Shown here in pieces: positions 2,852 through 56,529 of a DNA stretch of 64,000 nt. A model generated the notes under the pieces. It saw only the letters and a list, made by a program, of their open reading frames with translations, did no database searches and was not told where the DNA came from. The first letter of the stretch is position 1; the number at the start of each line of letters is the position of its first letter. The DNA comes from Selenomonadales bacterium (GTDB taxonomy: Bacteria > Bacillota > UBA994). The position numbers were made by a program, and so were the translations under genes. The DNA is taken from positions 25,189-89,188 of the forward strand of contig JAGXRZ010000053.1 of the NCBI GenBank assembly GCA_018335585.1, read 5' to 3'.

Positions 2852-3699
2852 GCTGGTCTCCTCCCATTCATTCCTGTCGCTCTAACTCCACGACAAACCG
2901 TACTCAGGTCCCCAGCGAATATGGCGTGTCATGATGCAGTCTGCCATGGGCAGGATCGCCATGACGCGAAGTGAATGTTGGGTTGCGCAGTCCTATTTGA
3001 ATTCTACATATGGTATATATTTCATCATTGATCATCAACATCCTGCTCAAAATCCTGCTCACTTTTGATAAAAGCAATGTCAACGTTGACATGAATGTTG
3101 GGGTTGCTGGCTGTGTTAATGGCGCTCTCTAGCTTTGGCCTGTCCAAAAACTAGTGCCGGACCCATTGACTGAACGTCGGCAAGTCAAAAATGAAAAGAA
3201 CTGCCGCCGCAGTCACCCTTAAGCTGTACTCTATGCTCCAGGAGGCGGTTGACCGTGAGTGATCGACTGCGAGAGCTATGCCGCCAAATGCGACTGGGGA
3301 ATCTGGCTATGCTTATTTAACCAAGTAGAGTATGCCGACAAAAAGCAGCACCTTACTGAGCTTCTGGAGATAGCTCACTAATGGCCGCTGACACTGCCCG
3401 TCCGCCCTTTGAAAAGCAAAATTGTTCATGCCGTCCTAGATCCACAAGGGCGGGAACAAGCAATTCCATTTGCATGCCTCGTTTTTTCTTCGCTCGCCGT
3501 TCATAGGCGGCCTGCTTCTCTCAACGCTCCTGTTCGTACTCTATCACTTCCCCAGTGATAGTAGATGCACTCAAAGAAATGACCTAGAGCAGCAGTTGAT
3601 CGCTACATCGTGGGTCGCTGCAGCGTGTTTCATAGACTAGCCACAAGTGGTAAACTACTATCAACAACCCCCTCCACCACATCCCAAAGGAGGCCCGAC

Positions 3700-3912
3700 A
3701 TGCTACCCCAAGCCAAATTAGATCGCCTTAACGCACAGGCGCAAAAGCAAAAGGAAGGCCAGCTCACCCCGGCGGAACAAAACGAGCAGAAGCTTTTACG
3801 CGCGGAGTATATACAGAGTTTTCGCAGCCGAGTCGCGGCCGACCTTGAGGCACAGGGCATGGAGCAGAAGCCTGCGCAGGGCTGTGCCTGCGGCTGCCGG
3901 CATAAGCACTGA
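3700..3912 (+). CDS. DUF896/UPF0291 (YnzC-like) small protein with a Cys-rich C-terminal tail
   Basis: SD AAAGGAGG 6 nt before ATG 3700. MLPQAKLDRLNAQAQKQKEGQLTPAEQNEQKLLRAEYIQSFRS matches the YnzC family pattern. The ORF-track entry 3610..3912 is an N-terminal over-extension. Confidence 0.55.
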   Translation: MLPQAKLDRLNAQAQKQKEGQLTPAEQNEQKLLRAEYIQSFRSRVAADLEAQGMEQKPAQGCACGCRHKH

Positions 3913-3992: not shown

Positions 3993-4105
3993 TTTGTGGC
4001 TTGTGGCTTGTCGCTTGTCGCTTGTGGCTTGCGGCTTGCGGCTTGTCGCTCAAAGCTCACCGCTCACCGCTCACAGCTCCGTTCACACTCAGTTCACATT
4101 CACCT
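3993..4105. repeat. Composite heptanucleotide tandem-repeat array (locus A): (GGCTTGT)x7, (CGCTCAC)x3, GTTCACA units
   Basis: Direct reading: gtggcttgtggcttgtcgcttgtcgcttgtggcttgcggcttgcggcttgtcgct caaagctcaccgctcaccgctcacagctc cgttcacactcagttcacattcacc. Confidence 0.9.
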
Positions 4106-6203: not shown

Positions 6204-9200
6204 ATGTCCTTACCCGCATTCGCCACATCGCGCCGCATCACGGTGTTGATGCTTGTCCTCATTACGGTAGTTATCGGCGTGATGTCTTACACGCGTACAC
6301 CCGTAGACTTGTTGCCTAACATGAACTTCCCCATGGCCGCCGTCCTCGTCTCCTTCCCCGGGGCTGCGCCGCAAGAGGTAGAAACACTTGTGACGAGGCC
6401 GCTCGAAGGGACGTTAGCGACCGTCAGCAACATTCGCGAAGTGTCCTCCACTTCGTCTGCCGGGCAGGCGACCATACTCCTGTCGTTTAACTGGGGCACT
6501 AATATGGACTTTGCCGCGCTGGAAATGCGCGAGAAGATTGACCTCATGCGTCGCCTGCTGCCGGCCGAAGTTGGCGCACCGACGGTAATGAAGTTTGACC
6601 CTTCGCTTATGCCAATAATGGCGGTTGACTTTGGTTCCGACACCCGCACCGGAGCAGAACTGCGCGACCTCGCCGATAGGGTGCTGGCTTCGCGCCTCGA
6701 ACGCGTCGCGGGAGTGGCCTCGGTCTCCGTTAGCGGCGGTCAGCAGACGGGCATAGAGGTGCGCCTAGACCCTGCTAAGCTCGAAGCGATGGGTATAACG
6801 CTCGCGCAAGTTACCGGGGCGCTCCGCACCGCGAGTCTAAACCTCCCCGGCGGCACCCTCAGCGTCGAGGGGCAAGAGTACCTAATCCGCAGCGTAGGGC
6901 AATTAACTTCTTTGAGTGAGATAGAAGACCTAATCGTAGGGATGCGCACCATCCGAACAGTGCGCACGGTTCCTGCGGCAACCGCGCTGACCATGCCGCA
7001 ACTTCCGCCCGGTTTGGTTATCCCGGGCCTGCCTGCGACCCCTTCGCCTACGCCGCAACAACAGGTTACTACCACAACCGAGCCTGTATACTTGCGGCAA
7101 GTCGGCACGGTGGCCGAGGTAAACGTATTAGGCAATACGGTCACGTTGCTCAACCGGTTGCCGAGCGTTTCCATTAGGCTGCACAAGCAGTCTGATGCTA
7201 ACACCGTCTTGGTGGCCAACCTAGTGCATGCCGAGCTCGAACAGCTGCGCGCGGATTTTGCCGACCTTACTATAGTCCCCACGCAAGACCAAAGCCGCTT
7301 TATTGAGGCGGCCATCAGTGCGGTAGGGCAGAACGCGGCCTATGGCGGCCTGCTGGCTGTGCTAGTTCTCCTCGTCTTCCTAAAGAGCGTTGCCCCAACC
7401 TTAGTAATTGCCATTGCCGTGCCGGTATCCGTTGTCGCTACCTTTGCGCTGGTCTACTTTGGCAACCTAACCATTAACATGATGACTCTCATGGGGCTAG
7501 CCCTAGGCATTGGCATGTTGGTCGACAACTCCATCGTAGTCTTAGAGAATATCTATCGTTACCAAGAAGAAGGCGCCGACCGCCTCACCGCTGCGCGCAA
7601 AGGCACCGAGGAAGTGGCCATGGCGATTACCGCCTCTACACTTACCACGGTGGCCGTCTTTCTGCCCGTGGCCTTTGTGGGCGGCATTACCGGCATGATG
7701 TTTAGGGAACTTGCTCTGACGGTGAGCTTTTCGCTCTTGTCGAGTCTTGCCGTCGCCCTAATAGTAGTGCCGGTTCTCTCGGCTACCATATTAAGGACAA
7801 GGCCGAGTCGGGCCGCGACAGGACAACGCCGCCTGAACCAGTACCAGGCGTCGCTAAAGTGGGCGCTCGGGCACAAGGCAGTAGTGGCGCTACTTACTTT
7901 GGCTTTGCTCGGGGGGAGCCTCCTCACCTTCGGTCGCATCGGCGGCGAGTTTATCCCCACTATGGATCAAGGTGAACTCAGCGTCACGGTGACGTTGCCC
8001 GCAGGCAGCGCCGTAAGCGAGACACAGGAAGTCGCTACCGTTGTCTTAGACGATTTGTTGGCGCGCCCCGAGGTCGGTTCGGTGTCGACGAGTATCGGCG
8101 GGGCAGGCGGCGGGCGCATGATGGGCATGGCCGCCGGACGCGCAAATCGCGCCACAATGACGGTGGTGCTTAAGACGGGTTACCGCAGTGCCGATATCGC
8201 CGCAGAGATAAACGCCAAGTATGCCGACTTCGCGGACGGCACCGTGCGCGCTTCAGCCGCGGCAGGCATGGGCGGGGGAGGGGGCATGGGTCTTGGCGGC
8301 AGCACTTCCGTTGTCGTTAACCTGTCCGGGCCTACTCTCGCCGGGCTAAGGCAGTACGCCGACCAAATTAAGGAGGCAGCCGCAACAATCGAAGGCATTA
8401 CGGAAGTGCGCGATAACGCCGGCGTCGGCGCGAACGAGCTGGTGGTGCGCGTAGACAGAGAGAAGGCGGCGCGCCTCGGTTTGGCTCCGACTGCGATAGC
8501 CGGTGCCGTGCGCACGGCGTTCCAGGGCGAGAACGTCTCCCGCGTCTCGCGTGACGGGCGCGAAATCGACGTCAACGTCAGCCTAATAGACTCCGCTCGC
8601 CAAAGCATAGCAGACCTCGAAAACCTAATTGTGGCCGCACGCGAGGGGCAGGTCGTTAGGCTTAGCCAAGTGGCATCTGTTGAACAGGCTGTCGGGCCGG
8701 CTTCGATTAACAGGCGGGCTAACCAGCGCTACGTCGCGATTACGGCTACCGTTGAAGGGCGCGACCTGCGGAGCGTGACGCGCGATTTGCAGGAAAGGCT
8801 CGACGCCTTAGAGCTCCCGGTGGATTACCGCGCCGAACTCGCGGGTGATGCGCTCGAGATGAACGAAGCCTTCAGCGGCCTAATTACCGCGCTAATCCTC
8901 GCTGTAGTGCTGGTGTATATGGTCATGGCCTCCCAGTTTGAGTCGCTGCTGTACCCGTTTATCGTCATGTTTACCATGCCGCTCGCGGTTATCGGCGTGC
9001 TGCTGGCGCTGTTCTTTACCGGCCAAACGTTTAACGTACCCTCGATTATGGGCGTTATCGTGCTGGCGGGGATTGTAGTTAACAACGCCATTGTCTTAGT
9101 CGACTACATTAACCAACTGCGCGCCCGCGGCCGCAGTGTGCACGACGCCATTATCGAGGCGGCGGGGGCAAGGCTTCGCCCCATCCTGATGACCACGACA

Positions 9201-9378: not shown

Positions 9379-9518
9379 GGCTTTGAGCTTTGAGCTGTGA
9401 GCTGTGAGGGAAAAGGTGCAGTGTGTCTCTGTGTTCTCTGTGCCTCTGTGGTGAACAACTCCTCCCCGGTCGTCTCCACGCAGTGCTAAGTGCGAAGTGC
9501 TAAGTGCTAAGTGCTGTG
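9379..9518. repeat. Composite heptanucleotide tandem-repeat array (locus B): CTTTGAG/CTGTGAG, TCTCTGTG, (GTGCTAA)x5
   Basis: ctttgagctttgagctgtgagctgtgag...gtgtgtctctgtgttctctgtgcctctgtg...agtgctaagtgcgaagtgctaagtgctaagtgct. The CTTTGAG/CTGTGAG units are the reverse complement of the CTCAAAG/CTCACAG units at locus C. Confidence 0.9.
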
Positions 9519-11136: not shown

Positions 11137-11589
11137 ATGCAGATATCACTGGGCAGCGACCACGCCGGTCTAGCATTAAAGCAAGAGATAGCCATGTTTC
11201 TCACGCGCGTCGGTCACACCGTGCTCGACAGGGGCACAAGCACAGAGGCCTCTGTCGATTACCCGGATTTTGCGGCGCTCGTGTGTAACGACATACAGAG
11301 CGGCGCGGCCGAGCGGGGGATACTTATCTGCGGCACCGGCATAGGCATGAGCATTGCCGCGAACAAACACGCGCGTATTCGCGCCGCCCTCTGCCACGAC
11401 ACTTTTTCTGCCCGCGCCACGCGCGAACATAACGATGCGAATGTGCTCTGTTTAGGGCAGCGGGTTATCGGTCCCGGGCTGGCGTTAGACATTGTCGCCG
11501 TTTGGCTGGGAGCCGAGTTTGTCGGGGACAAGCACCTGCGGCGCCTAGAGAAGATTGCCCTGCTTGAGCAGGGTCAAAGCGAGCGCTAA
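11137..11589 (+). CDS. rpiB: Ribose-5-phosphate isomerase B
   Basis: [15 protein letters not shown]...[14 protein letters not shown]. Confidence 0.85.
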
Positions 11590-13963: not shown

Positions 13964-15142
13964 ATGGCCATCAAAGTCTTTACCGTGTTTGGGGTACGGC
14001 CGGAGGCCGTGAAAATGGCCCCGGTCATTAGCGAGCTCGGGCGCTATCCTGAGTTTAGCGTTTCCGTGTGCGTCACCGGACAGCACCGCGCCATGCTAGA
14101 CCAGGTACTGCGCCTGTTTAGTATCGAGCCAAAATACGACCTAAACATTATGCGTGAGAGACAGACATTGCCCGAAACGTTTGCGCGGGCGCTTACCGGG
14201 CTTGACGAAATCTTTCGCGCCGACCGCCCGGACATTGTGCTAGTCCACGGCGATACGTCTACAACGCTCGCCGGCAGCCTGGCCGCTTTCTACAACCAAG
14301 TGCCGGTCGGGCACGTCGAAGCTGGGTTGCGTACGCACGAGAAGTACTTGCCTTTCCCCGAGGAAATAAACCGTAAGCTCACGGGCAGCCTAGCCGACCT
14401 GCACTTTGCTCCTACGCCGACGGCGAAGGGCAATCTGTTGCGCGAAGGCGTGCGAGAAGAGAGCATTTTCATTACCGGCAACACCGTCATCGACGCGCTA
14501 GCTACAACCGTGCGGCCGGATTACGAGTACCACGACGCCGCCTTGCGACAGGCGCTCGCCAAGACTACGGGACGATTGCTCTTAGTAGAAGTGCACCGGC
14601 GCGAGAACTGGGGCGAGCCGATGCAGGCCATGTGTTTGGCTTTGCTCGATGTGCTCGCGGCCTTCCCGGACTGCCGCATGATTTTTCCGGTTCACCTTAA
14701 CCCTGTGGTAAGGGAAGTGGTAATGCCTCATCTGGCGGGGCATCCGCAAATCACCCTGCTTGACCCGCTCGATACCGACGACTTCCACAACTTGATGGCG
14801 CGTTCTTACCTTATACTTACCGACTCAGGCGGACTGCAGGAAGAAGCCCCGGCGCTAGGCGTGCCGGTCTTGGTGATGCGCACCAGTACCGAGCGCCCCG
14901 AAGCCGTAGAGGCAGGCACCGTGCGCATCGTGGGGACGTCGCGCGCCGGGATTGTGGCGCATGCGAGCGAGTTGCTGGAAAGCAAAGCCGCCTACCAGTC
15001 CATGAGCACGGCGATTAACCCCTACGGCGACGGCCGCGCCGCAGGCCGCATTGCTCAAGCGTTGCTGCATTTCTTTGGCCGCACGCCGGAACGGCCAGCG
15101 GAGTGGAGAGGTGCCCAGTGCTCAGTGCCCAGTGCCCAGTAG
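13964..15142 (+). CDS. wecB: UDP-N-acetylglucosamine 2-epimerase (non-hydrolysing); the last ~10 codons come from the heptad repeat array
   Basis: MAIKVFTVFGVRPEAVKMAPVI at ATG 13964, in frame with ORF-track entry 13592..15142 (the upstream part of that entry overlaps the deaminase and is spurious). The C-terminus ...GAQCSVPSAQ* is encoded by the GTGCCCA repeats. Confidence 0.85.
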   Translation: MAIKVFTVFGVRPEAVKMAPVISELGRYPEFSVSVCVTGQHRAMLDQVLRLFSIEPKYDLNIMRERQTLPETFARALTGLDEIFRADRPDIVLVHGDTSTTLAGSLAAFYNQVPVGHVEAGLRTHEKYLPFPEEINRKLTGSLADLHFAPTPTAKGNLLREGVREESIFITGNTVIDALATTVRPDYEYHDAALRQALAKTTGRLLLVEVHRRENWGEPMQAMCLALLDVLAAFPDCRMIFPVHLNPVVREVVMPHLAGHPQITLLDPLDTDDFHNLMARSYLILTDSGGLQEEAPALGVPVLVMRTSTERPEAVEAGTVRIVGTSRAGIVAHASELLESKAAYQSMSTAINPYGDGRAAGRIAQALLHFFGRTPERPAEWRGAQCSVPSAQ

Positions 15143-15327
15143 TGGTAGCTGGCTCCTAGCTCCTGGCTCCTGGTAGAAAGACCCGCACTCCCCAGTTCAT
15201 GATTCACGATTCACGATTCATGATTTCTAACGCCTCAAGCCTAACGCCTCACCCTCTCAAAGCTCAAAGCTCAAAGCTCACAGCTCACAGCTCAAAGCTG
15301 GCGGCTGGCGCCTGGCGGCCGGCGGCC
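15111..15327. repeat. Composite heptanucleotide tandem-repeat array (locus C): (GTGCCCA)x4, (TGGCTCC)x3, (TTCAYGA)x4, (CTAACGCCTCA)x2, (CTCAAAG/CTCACAG)x6, (CTGGCGG)x4
   Basis: Direct reading of 15111-15327. Every block is built from 7-bp units. The module order is near-identical to locus E. Confidence 0.9.
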
Positions 15328-15338
15328 TACTCCCCCTG

Positions 15339-15367
15339 TTGCCTGCCACGGACAAAATGTGTAGTAT
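15339..15367 (+). promoter_or_regulatory. Candidate sigma-A promoter of the V-type ATPase operon (TTGCCT-17-TAGTAT)
   Basis: -35 TTGCCT at 15339, 17-bp spacer, -10 TAGTAT with TGtG upstream; about 55 bp before the first ATPase gene. Confidence 0.4.
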
Positions 15368-15421
15368 AGTGTGGGCGATAGTACCGAATTATTAATCCGT
15401 TCCCGAAGGAAGGTGATGACG

Positions 15422-28859: not shown

Positions 28860-29139
28860 GAGGGACGGGGAGTGTCGGAGAGGGACGGAGGAGTGCGACA
28901 TCAAAAATGAAATAAACGTGCGACAATTCCTGGGCCTTGTTCTATAGCCCACATGTTCTCCAGCCCACATGCAACCTCCTGGCCTCAAGGGAGGTTGTTC
29001 TCTTTCGCGCAACCAACCCAGCAGCAGGAAACGGGGAAGCTCAAATAGAACAGGTATCAGACGAGCATGCCTATGGCGTTAAGCTGCAAACCGAGCATAC
29101 TATTGCTGCTACAAAATATCGGATAGGGGTGAATCGGCA

Positions 29140-38219: not shown

Positions 38220-38346
38220 ATTATGACAACAATGCGGCAAAAATACAACAGCAAACGTTATTTTACGCAACAACAGTCCAAATTAACGCAACAACAGCGC
38301 GAAATAACGCAACAACAGGCCAACTTGAACCACATTGTTGCGTTAA
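38220..38346 (-). promoter_or_regulatory. Promoter (TTGTAT-17-CATAAT, TG-extended) preceded by three 21-bp-phased direct repeats TAACGCAACAACAG and one inverted copy
   Basis: -10 at 38220-25 and -35 at 38243-48 on the minus strand. Repeats at 38265-76, 38286-97 and 38307-18; inverted copy at 38333-46. Confidence 0.5.
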
Positions 38347-40235: not shown

Positions 40236-40341
40236 GTGCTACCCCCTTAATTTACAGACGTCTTCTGAGTGCGCGTCGTCATGCCCTCCAAAATATTCTA
40301 CATCTGACCCCCTCTACCTGCCGGCAAATGAAAAATTAAGC

Positions 40342-40371
40342 GAAGCAAAAAGCTCCGTCCCTTTTGCTTCA
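40342..40371. repeat. 34-bp hairpin repeat copy 3
   Basis: agcgaagcaaaaagctccgtcccttttgcttcac, located between the ABC gene and spoIIID. Confidence 0.85.
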
Positions 40372-40432
40372 CATATACCTGCTTCCAGCTCATATATGTT
40401 AAGTGAAGTAGTGAGCTACGGGGGGCGGGAGC

Positions 40433-52401: not shown

Positions 52402-52412
52402 GAAGCAAAAGG

Positions 52413-52442
52413 GAAGCAAAAGGGACGGAGCTTTTTGCTTCA
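52413..52442. repeat. 34-bp hairpin repeat copy 4 (inverted orientation, preceded by a partial duplicate)
   Basis: agaagcaaaagggaagcaaaagggacggagctttttgcttcac. Confidence 0.85.
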
Positions 52443-52462
52443 CAACCGGCTCCCAGCTCGAG

Positions 52463-52498: not shown

Positions 52499-52606
52499 AG
52501 TCGCTTACCGCTCACCGCTTACCGCTAACCGCCCACGGCCCCCCACAAGCGACAAGCGACCGGCGTCCTGCGACATCGCCTTGCACAAGCGACAAAAACG
52601 CCAAGC
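52499..52606. repeat. Composite heptanucleotide tandem-repeat array (locus D): (CGCTYAC)x5 and (ACAAGCG)n
   Basis: tcgcttaccgctcaccgcttaccgctaaccgcccac...cacaagcgacaagcgac...cacaagcgacaaaaacgcc. ACAAGCG is the reverse complement of the CGCTTGT unit at locus A. Confidence 0.85.
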
Positions 52607-53513: not shown

Positions 53514-54725
53514 ATGCGACACTTTTTTACCTCAGAGTCAGTGACAGAAGGGCACCCCGATAAAATCTGCGATCAAATTGCCGACGCCGTACTAGACGCC
53601 ATTCTCACGCAAGACAGCACCGCCCGCGTAGCGTGCGAAACGGCGGTCACTACCGGACTTGTCCTGGTCATGGGCGAGATATCCACTACCTGCTATGTGG
53701 ACATCCCGCGTATAGTGCGTGACACCGTGCGCGAAATCGGCTACACGCGGGCTAAGTATGGCTTTGACGCCGAGACGTGTGCAGTAATTACGTCCATCGA
53801 CGAGCAGTCGCCCGATATCGCCCAAGGCGTCAACCAGGCACTAGAGCAAAGGGAGGGTGGCGAGGCGCCCGACCAAGCCTCGAGCACCGGTGCCGGCGAC
53901 CAAGGCATGATGTTTGGCTATGCCTGTGCAGAGACGCCGGAATACATGCCTTTGCCCATTAGTCTGGCCCATAGCCTCGCACGCCGCCTGAGCGCCGTGC
54001 GCAAACAGCGCATTATCCCTTATCTCCGGCCCGATGGCAAAACTCAAGTCACCGTGGAATACGAGGGACATCGCCCCGTGCGGGTTGACACGGTTGTAGT
54101 CTCGGCGCAACACAAACCGGAGGTCACACTCCCGACCATTCGCGAGGACATCATTGCGCAGGTCGTGCGCCACTGCATCCCCGCGCACTTGCTCGACCAC
54201 AAGACAAAGTTCCTTATAAATCCAACGGGCCGATTTGTGGTGGGCGGGCCGCAGGGCGACAGCGGCCTCACCGGGCGCAAAATCATGGTCGACACTTACG
54301 GTGGTGCAGCACGCCACGGCGGCGGAGCGTTTTCCGGCAAAGACCCAACCAAAGTTGATCGCTCGGCGGCGTATGCGGCGCGCTATGTGACGAAAAACAT
54401 CGTAGCCGCAGGGTTAGCGGAGCGCTGTGAGTTGCAGGTCGCCTACGCCATTGGGGTGGCGAAGCCCGTCTCGATTATGGTCGATACCTTTGGCACGGGT
54501 GCAGTAAGCTCAGACAAGCTAGCCCAGATTGTAGGCCGCCATTTTGACTTACGTCCGGCAGCGATTATCGCGCACCTAGGCCTGAGGGCGCCAATCTATC
54601 GCCAAGTAGCGGCTTATGGCCACATGGGGCGCCCTGACCTTGACCTCCCCTGGGAGCGACTTGATAAGGTGGCGGAGTTAAGGCAGTATGTGGGTGCCCA
54701 GTGCCCAGTGCCCAGTGCTCAGTAG
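53514..54725 (+). CDS. metK: S-adenosylmethionine synthetase; the C-terminal 10 residues come from the heptad repeat array
   Basis: [10 protein letters not shown]; GAGDQG; [18 protein letters not shown]. The terminal ...[12 protein letters not shown] is encoded by the GTGCCCA repeats. Confidence 0.95.
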
Positions 54726-54900
54726 AACGGGGGACTCTTGGCTCCTGGCTCCTGGTAGAGGGAGTGCTTAGCGGTTAAAGCGTACGGCTTACAGCGTACA
54801 GCTTACAGCCATCAGCGGACAGCCACTCCGCAGTGGCAGTTCATGATTCACGATTCCTGATTCATGATTGCTCAATGCTCACCGCTCACCGCTCAAAGCT
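54694..54900. repeat. Composite heptanucleotide tandem-repeat array (locus E): (GTGCCCA)x4, (TGGCTCC)x2, (GCTTACA)x3, (TTCAYGA)x4, (CGCTCAC)x2
   Basis: Module order mirrors locus C. Confidence 0.9.
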
Positions 54901-56346: not shown

Positions 56347-56529
56347 TGATTTCCCTCCTTATAATTTTTCACTGAGCGCCTCAATCTCTTTCTATATTGC
56401 GGCCTCCCTCACCTTCTCAAAAAAAATGAATTGTACAATAAAATTTTAACTTGGCGGCCTCAATTAAGCAAGAGACAGATTTAGGATGAGCACTGAGCAC
56501 TACTCCACTGCATACCATAGTGCAAGGGG

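Follow-up and report, generated by a model that had tools for sequence, protein, structure and literature searches.

Composite arrays of heptanucleotide cassettes in intergenic spacers of an uncultured Bacillota lineage

Results

Five spacers consist of consecutive heptanucleotide arrays

The DNA analyzed here (hereafter the window) is a 64-kb stretch of contig JAGXRZ010000053.1 (assembly GCA_018335585.1) from an uncultured member of the Bacillota known as a metagenome-assembled genome (MAG). A protein identical to its MetK is labeled "Selenomonadales bacterium" by NCBI, and the nearest MetK homologs come from Bacillota/Peptococcaceae MAGs. Five spacers of the window, designated loci A to E, are filled with tandem heptanucleotides, and the genes flanking them are unrelated housekeeping genes: those for a DUF896 protein and a response regulator at locus A, an RND permease and TsaC at locus B, WecB and the V-type ATPase operon at locus C, DegV and a protein of unknown type at locus D, and MetK and NhaC at locus E. 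The arrays were located with Tandem Repeats Finder (TRF), which reported period-7 arrays at all five loci; the spacers are nearly completely made up of consecutive 7-bp tandem blocks, plus a single 8-bp block at 9422-9450. When the window was scanned by sliding autocorrelation for periods between 4 and 15, runs appeared solely at period 7 (eight segments) and its multiple 14 (four segments), and 50 block shuffles used as a control were free of them. The original prediction, made from the sequence of the window, had described back-to-back 7-bp blocks in these five spacers, and this description was confirmed. It was also right that units are common to several loci, in part as reverse complements: the reverse complement of CTCAAAG/CTCACAG is present at locus B, and ACAAGCG of locus D is related in the same way to CGCTTGT of locus A. 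The remaining large spacers of the window hold ordinary promoters, terminators, and small genes, with the exception of a sixth site at 56487-56501 (minus strand), where TRF detected a two-unit remnant (TGAGCAC x2) of the unit named M1 below.

The arrays are collinear subsets of a longer arrangement of cassettes

A metagenome scan with CAGTTCAYGATTCAYGATTC returned 71 stretches, i.e., 65 distinct loci. About 25-30 of these 65 loci carry the cassettes (blocks of one repeated unit) and linkers found in the window; they originate from the same sample series, have a GC content of 52-60%, and do not overlap the window. Altogether, about 40 further composites (successions of cassettes) built from the window's units were found on contigs from this organism or from close relatives, which excludes that the five loci are isolated tracts. 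For a quantitative description, 13 cassettes were defined, and the window together with 21 related loci was tokenized. The family comprises at least 13 heptanucleotide cassettes, typically of four units each, with short conserved linkers between them. In the tokenized set, 45 composites contained two or more cassettes, and in 42 of them all cassettes lay on one strand. The order of cassette pairs was concordant in 93% of cases, compared with 66 ± 2% (maximum 74%) in 2000 within-composite shuffles; each composite is thus a collinear subset of a single, longer arrangement. Its approximate order begins with M3 (GCACTTM)/M2 (TGGCTCC)/M1 (GTGCYCA) and continues with M12 (ACCTTTC), M4 (GCTTACR), M5 (GCGGAWA), M6 (GCTGAGY), M7 (TTCAYGA), M8 (GCTCAMM), M9 (CCTAACG), M10 (GCYGGCG), and M11 (AAGCGAC). 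The ends of the composites are variable, since individual copies begin and finish at different cassettes. The earlier statement that the repeats do not reflect decay of one long repeat is hence misleading as far as composites are concerned.

Four is the most frequent number of units in a cassette (92 of 213 blocks). For M7, exactly four units were present in 24 of 30 distinct arrays, despite at least nine internal variant patterns among the four-unit arrays. As to the relationship between units, GTGCNNA is the pattern of which M1, M6, and also M3, when reversed, are variants, and at 6079-6170 of L188, which holds the longest composite, an M3 array, (GCACTTA)n, is 77% reverse-complementary over 26 nucleotides to an M1 array, (GTGCCCA)n, with M2 placed between them.

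Composition of the individual loci

Loci C and E, both on the plus strand, have blocks, block order, and nonrepeat linkers in common, including an identical 20-mer, CAGTTCATGATTCACGATTC. Tokenization of locus C (15111-15326) gave M1 (GTGCCCA x4; TRF, x4.3 at 15111-15140) and GTAG, M2 (TGGCTCC x3; TRF, CTGGCTC x3.6 at 15149-15173) and TGGTAGA, a linker, CAG with M7 (TTCAYGA x4; TRF, TTCACGA x4.3 at 15196-15225), M9 (CCTAACG-type x3), M8 (GCTCAMM x6; TRF, CTCAAAG x6.3 at 15256-15299), and M10 (GCTGGCG x4; TRF, x4.3 at 15297-15326). The arrays are directly followed by a promoter-like site (15343-15370), whereas a terminator was not detected at this locus. Locus E (54694-54900) lies between the end of metK and a bidirectional terminator and consists of M1 (GTGCCCA x4; TRF, x4.3 at 54694-54723) and GTAG, M2 (x2) and TGGTAGAGGGAG, M4 (GCTTACA/GCGTACA x4-5), the linker GCCACTCCGCAGTGG, and CAG followed by M7 (x4; TRF, TTCATGA x4.3 at 54840-54869) and M8 (x4-5). 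Further TRF arrays of locus E span 54735-54755 (x3), 54779-54809 (x4.4), and 54870-54900 (x4.4).

In locus A, reversed M11 is joined to forward M8: eight minus-strand units TTGTGGC/TTGTCGC, i.e., reversed AAGCGAC/AAGCCAC, occupy 3994-4050 (TRF, TTGTGGC x8.1), and the plus-strand block at 4048-4102 contains 4.6 M8 units (GCTCAAA/GCTCACC/GCTCACA; TRF, GCTCACA x4.6 at 4048-4079) and then degenerate TTCACAY units. The whole composite of locus B (9380-9515, minus strand) is reversed, as shown by TRF and tokenization; it is composed of reversed M8 (GCTTTGA/GCTGTGA x4; TRF, GCTGTGA x4.1 at 9380-9408), the 8-bp unit TGTGTCTC (x3.5 at 9422-9450) with a linker, and reversed M3 (AGTGCTA x5, corresponding to GCACTTA; TRF, x4.9 at 9482-9515). 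Locus D (52502-52605, plus strand) comprises five M8-like units CGCTYAC (TRF, CGCTCAC x5 at 52502-52536), CCCC, two M11 units ACAAGCG (TRF, x2.3 at 52545-52560), and degenerate GCGNNNN heptads. Its right end is the shared flank ACAAGCGACAAAAACGC, which is followed by a TACAAT promoter-like box.

The first array blocks of loci C and E encode the ends of WecB and MetK

The five loci had been predicted to be intergenic, which proved accurate for the spacers but not for the first block (about 30 nucleotides) of loci C and E, as it overlaps the 3' ends of the upstream open reading frames (ORFs); all other array DNA lies between ORFs, and the remnant at 56487-56501 has to be added as a sixth site. 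The last 10 or so codons of wecB and its stop codon (15111-15142, plus strand) are encoded by M1 and give the tail GAQCSVPSAQ, and the NCBIfam wecB model stops at residue 369 of 393, about 24 residues ahead of the WecB stop. Similarly, M1 encodes approximately the last 10 codons and the stop codon of metK (54694-54725, plus strand), and the two tails are nearly identical, with the pattern GAQC(S/P)VPSAQ followed by the stop. This tail is missing from relatives whose MetK proteins (393-399 amino acids) are 91-97% identical. The heptad repeats append short junk tails to the annotated MetK and WecB proteins.

The composites are stable among near-identical strains

The exact MetK protein was found on 24 contigs, six of which, from JGI, ENA, and Logan assemblies, were read at locus E. 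In five of the six the locus was the same base for base, with the Logan contig stopping within the array, and in the sixth, slightly divergent contig it differed by point substitutions only. The agreement between independent metagenome assemblies shows that the arrays do not result from misassembly, a possibility that the original prediction had itself raised. In near-identical strain pairs the composites were identical as well, and no copy-number variation was seen among near-identical strains or assemblies. The simple picture of live microsatellites does not fit these data, as copy number peaks at four and is invariant among near-identical strains.

These data also bear on the possibility that the arrays are contingency loci, in which copy-number slippage toggles adjacent genes (phase variation). 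In Haemophilus, heptanucleotide repeats in the hmw promoters are indeed responsible for phase variation (PMC8262952), and one indel of three units was found between strains of 97% identity (see below). However, copy number is constant in independent assemblies of near-identical populations, the neighbors are housekeeping genes (metK, wecB, V-ATPase, tsaC, and degV), and the arrays are situated upstream of the -35 box or after stop codons, outside the -35/-10 spacer and the 5' coding regions. We regard phase variation as hardly credible here.

Composites turn over rapidly between species

Orthologous metK regions of three relatives, with nucleotide identities to the window of about 85-88% (contig L198), 80% (L199), and 74% (L200), were compared. 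In L198, composites are present at the sites orthologous to the metK and degV loci, with cassette content and order unlike those of the window, and a full reverse composite (M8, M12, M1) occupies the site of the window's two-unit remnant at 56487-56501. The L199 sequence (GCA_964349715.1) contains three runs of exactly 100 N (7686-7785, 8980-9079, and 11186-11285), two of which fall at sites orthologous to loci D and E. These runs are consistent with assembly breaks and may well be scaffold gaps or masking at places where heptad arrays interrupted the assembly. Breakage of assemblies by heptad arrays is probable, given the contig that stops within an array and the 100-N gaps of a related MAG at array sites. 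No period-7 arrays were found in 15 kb of L200, nor in 20 kb of a further contig, L201, whose MetK is 82% identical. The metK-nhaC spacer of L200 consists of the bidirectional terminator only, and the sequences on its two sides align exactly with those that border the window's 206-bp composite. The site downstream of degV is likewise empty in L200 save for about 2.5 reversed M7 units, GTGAATCAGGAATCGTGA, at about 2815-2840, so traces of the family extend to a relative of about 74% identity. The empty sites at locus D and upstream of nhaC are too diverged to give exact insertion boundaries.

In a pair of strains with 97% identity, a 21-bp indel (three units) and loss of cassettes were detected, and GTGCCCA had been changed to GTGCTCC in three of four units in a concerted manner, with identical flanks. 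Change therefore proceeds by whole heptads and whole cassettes. Turnover is slow at the scale of populations and fast at the scale of species.

Presence and absence of composites at orthologous sites, together with many dispersed collinear copies, conserved linkers, and both orientations, would suit nonautonomous mobile elements, similar to miniature inverted-repeat transposable elements (MITEs) or to repetitive extragenic palindromic (REP) sequences and bacterial interspersed mosaic elements (BIMEs), that are moved in trans by a transposase or recombinase, the heptads being secondary. Moreover, AAGGYGG stands on either side of the composite at the metK site of L198, and the empty site has one copy of it. 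Against this, target-site duplications are inconsistent, as the window copy at the metK site has no left AAGGTGG, and the ends of composites are not fixed. A search for terminal inverted repeats at composite ends yielded solely the metK terminator hairpin and the partial M3/M1 complementarity. Accordingly, the features of a MITE, i.e., terminal inverted repeats and a consistent target-site duplication, were both absent, the latter at the single comparable filled/empty site. The palindromic modules of REP/BIME elements were not found either, because the cassettes are nonpalindromic direct repeats on one strand, with folding energies close to those of shuffled sequences (z from -0.1 to -1.0). 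No transposase was seen beside the composites, though no systematic search was made for one. We consider a mobile element unlikely.

Composites show neither strand bias nor RNA structure

Composites mostly occupy the bulk of their spacer and were found in all gene contexts: 27 lie between tandem genes (10 co-oriented with the genes and 17 opposite), seven between convergent genes, and six between divergent genes. There was consequently no strand bias and no restriction to the 3' ends of genes. The folding energies of loci C and E and of the L188 composite corresponded to z-scores of -0.1, -1.0, and -1.0, no better than those of shuffles, and Rfam 15 gave no match at the gathering score anywhere in the window. 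The idea of a structured RNA was rejected, since the folds match shuffles.

An action at the RNA level could also take the form of 3' or 5' untranslated regions in which single-strand-binding proteins with a cold-shock domain read the heptads, or in which folds have a regulatory or stabilizing effect. Several composites do stand directly after stop codons and a few tens of bases ahead of start codons, M3 is partially complementary to M1/M6, and for TAACTGA repeats it has been discussed whether each heptamer binds one cold-shock protein (PMC4679880). Nevertheless, the lack of orientation bias and the fold z-scores argue against a strand-specific RNA role, and so do the composites between divergent genes, the absence of an Rfam match, and the position of locus C upstream of a promoter-like site. 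An RNA-level function thus appears highly improbable.

A hairpin-type dispersed repeat, GAAGCAAAAGG(N8-10)CTTTTGCTTC, adjoins composites and is found in the window at 52402-52445 (plus strand), with an inverted second copy at about 40336-40375. It abuts an M3 cassette in L136 (about 4060-4095) and L194 (about 235-270), and in L198 its 3' arm continues into an AAGAGGC/AAGAAGC heptad array. The hairpin repeat looks like a terminator or REP-type element and may seed or anchor composites. Among other features of the window, a region of about 850 bp that lacks a long ORF (2852-3700) separates the DUF896 gene from a large gene on the minus strand. Short repeats, both direct and inverted, are present in this region (TRF, 12-bp repeat at 3035-3061), which may be a decayed gene or element. 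Two nonheptad tandem repeats were also noted, a 21-bp unit (ACGCAACAACAGCCCAAAATA) x2.8 at 38265-38323 and a 16-bp unit (TGTTCTACAGCCCACA) x2.1 at 28938-28971, the latter within a 280-bp spacer.

Heptanucleotide arrays with window units occur in many phyla

Heptanucleotides rank first in abundance among the longer simple repeats of numerous bacterial genomes (Mrazek 2007, as summarized in PMC4679880 and PMC4692102), and the SPADE survey found tandem heptamers to be the most abundant intergenic tandem repeats of prokaryotes, with no clear clue to a function (Mori et al. 2019, PMC6344855). Arrays of mixed heptamers have been noted in Microcystis (PMC4679880), and dispersed four-heptad elements in Xanthomonas (PMC4692102) and Geobacter (PMC2700814). 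We scanned one genome per species with three consecutive GCTCAMM units, a pattern that matches loci A, C, and E of the window and is not expected by chance, and obtained at least 120 stretches from many phyla. The matches listed include Gemmatimonadota, Acidobacteriota, Planctomycetota, Bacteroidota, Chloroflexota, Verrucomicrobiota, Streptomyces, and Streptococcus, and the source genome was not among them. Within the 8-kb flanks of the listed matches, 205 period-7 runs were counted, compared with 2-20 for other periods (4-12), and multiunit mosaics were frequent, e.g., in Aequorivita, Kiritimatiellia, Chloroflexi, and Gemmatimonadales. The tetranucleotide TCAC was present in 25% of the co-occurring units of other phyla, a value that is biased by variants of the query unit and was not used. 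Perfect runs in the other phyla are interrupted by unit variants, and histograms of their lengths are therefore uninformative about a four-unit peak. GCTCAMM arrays were also found in 36 viral or proviral contigs of IMG/VR (L202-L237), and the M7 motif was absent from the viral contigs of this database. Given the published intergenic heptamers and mixed arrays (PMC6344855, PMC4679880) and the spread of GCTCAMM over many phyla, the suggestion that the window contains an undescribed repeat class was not upheld.

Two of these genomes deserve mention. An Aequorivita MAG (Bacteroidota; L020, 400-700 and 1780-2660) has an extreme heptad load, with 13 period-7 arrays within 7.7 kb, and includes about five repeats of a higher-order unit of about 105 bp, in every one of which there is a heptad array of AAACTAT. 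A Kiritimatiellia MAG (L049, 2300-2540 and 3680-3850) carries two copies of one composite, in which arrays of GAACGNN and CAACGCT are followed by a GC-rich hairpin and then by a GAACGCA array. Fixed-order heptad mosaics therefore exist in another phylum, too.

Discussion

The analysis presented here places the five loci within the broad class of prokaryotic intergenic heptamers. Like the LSSR5-11 class (Mrazek et al. 2007, as far as it is described in later papers) and the SPADE heptamers (PMC6344855), the arrays of the window consist of tandem 7-nucleotide units, lie in spacers, are sporadically distributed across the phylogeny, and have no known function; in the window, tandem iteration of heptads exceeds chance and is mainly intergenic. 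The family differs from intergenic heptamers in general by its fixed-order cassettes, conserved linkers, four-unit mode, and stability among near-identical strains, and no description of a collinear cassette arrangement was found in the literature searched. What is new is thus a matter of detail, namely, the collinear order of cassettes, the four-unit mode, and the series of empty, remodeled, and identical sites, and a new class of element is not established.

The BIMEs of Escherichia coli, i.e., mosaics of REP sequences or palindromic units, provide a parallel, as they are modular, intergenic, adjacent to terminators, strain-variable in module number, and missing in some relatives. Their modules are, however, imperfect palindromes of about 35-40 bp in alternating orientation, whereas those of the window are nonpalindromic direct heptads on one strand. 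The arrays had also been called STRR-like, and in form this holds, as both are tandem heptanucleotides in spacers. The consensus units of the cyanobacterial STRR families are CCCCAGT (STRR1), TTGGTCA (STRR2), and CAACAGT (STRR3). When compared with the window, none of these three units, nor TAACTGA, was present as a tandem dimer on either strand; M1, when rotated (GCCCAGT), is one position apart from STRR1. Three heptanucleotide STRR families have been described in Calothrix/Nostoc (as summarized in PMC4692102), and these, like the Microcystis arrays (PMC4679880), resemble the window family in having several families per genome, an intergenic location, and differing units next to each other, but the host here belongs to the Bacillota and is not a heterocystous cyanobacterium. 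The GGGAATC elements of Xanthomonas (PMC4692102) and those of Geobacter metallireducens (PMC2700814) are likewise dispersed, mostly composed of four heptads, and present in dozens to hundreds of copies. Unlike the approximately 13 families that follow a fixed order in the window and have no G-tracts, they are single-unit families, and those of Xanthomonas are G-rich and quadruplex-forming. The GGGAATC unit was absent from the window.

We lean toward the view that the loci are copies of a lineage-specific, noncoding mosaic repeat that was born by slippage, spread by recombination, and tolerated in spacers. According to this scenario, heptads would have originated by slipped-strand mispairing in a 7-nucleotide register and would still change in this way occasionally; polymerase slippage has also been proposed for prokaryotic heptamers at large (PMC6344855, PMC4679880, PMC4692102). 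Recombination, gene conversion, or template switching, and not a transposase, may then account for the copying of whole cassettes and composites from locus to locus and for their loss and replacement. The copies occupy dispensable spacer, from a gene end or terminator to the next promoter or terminator, in either orientation. They presumably have no locus-specific regulatory job, and effects on neighbors, such as the 10-residue tails of MetK and WecB, would be incidental.

Several points weigh against this view. Free slippage predicts broad or geometric copy numbers and polymorphism, while we observed a four-unit peak and no length variation in near-identical assemblies. The persistence of four units despite the sequence variants of M7 indicates either a length constraint or descent from four-unit masters, and the four-unit heptads of Xanthomonas and Geobacter (PMC4692102, PMC2700814) could mean that there is a function. 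Furthermore, the copying mechanism is a proposed one, the case for neutrality comes from nonconservation at orthologous sites, and the sample of the lineage amounts to about 250 kb, mostly selected for M7.

The four-unit preference, which recurs in the Xanthomonas and Geobacter elements, keeps alive an alternative in which the cassettes are arrays acting as DNA. Small dimeric DNA-binding proteins would bind cooperatively to about four heptads, each heptad taking up one dimer, and a composite would serve as a generic insulator or chromosome-structuring element between one transcription unit and the next. The model for such proteins is omega, a ribbon-helix-helix protein of inc18 plasmids such as pSM19035, which binds contiguous 7-bp WATCACW units. 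Omega operators share with the window contiguous 7-bp arrays, a TCAC core, which is contained in M7 (TTCACGA) and M8 (GCTCACC), and a function independent of unit orientation, and action of this kind would agree with the absence of strand bias. Copy number quantized at four in spite of sequence turnover and the placement of composites from a gene end or terminator to the next promoter also fit this proposal. On the other hand, the units of the window are not WATCACW, are of many kinds, and are chromosomal and dispersed; omega consensus units were absent from the window, where no dimers of AATCACA or TATCACT were found. About 13 unit families would require many proteins or one very tolerant protein, and no candidate has been identified, the omega protein itself not having been searched for. 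In addition, cassette content at orthologous sites is not conserved at about 86% identity, and at about 74% the sites are empty between the same flanking genes. As for precedents, four-heptad elements have been proposed as sites of global regulators in Geobacter (PMC2700814), and deletion of heptamer repeats changed the action of a regulator at the Nostoc recO promoter (bioRxiv 10.1101/2022.06.06.494920). Taken together, protein-binding arrays are a possible explanation that we nonetheless judge to be rather improbable.

More speculatively, and with a small chance of being right, the quantization at four units, the linkers, and the fixed order might reflect a dedicated system, either a set of heptad-reading DNA-binding proteins that assemble along the 28 bp of a cassette or a machinery that copies cassettes from a template into spacers. 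If true, such a system would explain in general the period-7 signal of prokaryotic spacers, because four-unit heptads are also reported from Xanthomonas and Geobacter and identical units are met again in other phyla. The four-unit cassettes give defined 28-bp probes for protein-binding tests. In any case, this lineage is an unusually clear instance of the intergenic heptamers, in which the comparison of genomes makes their origin and turnover directly testable.

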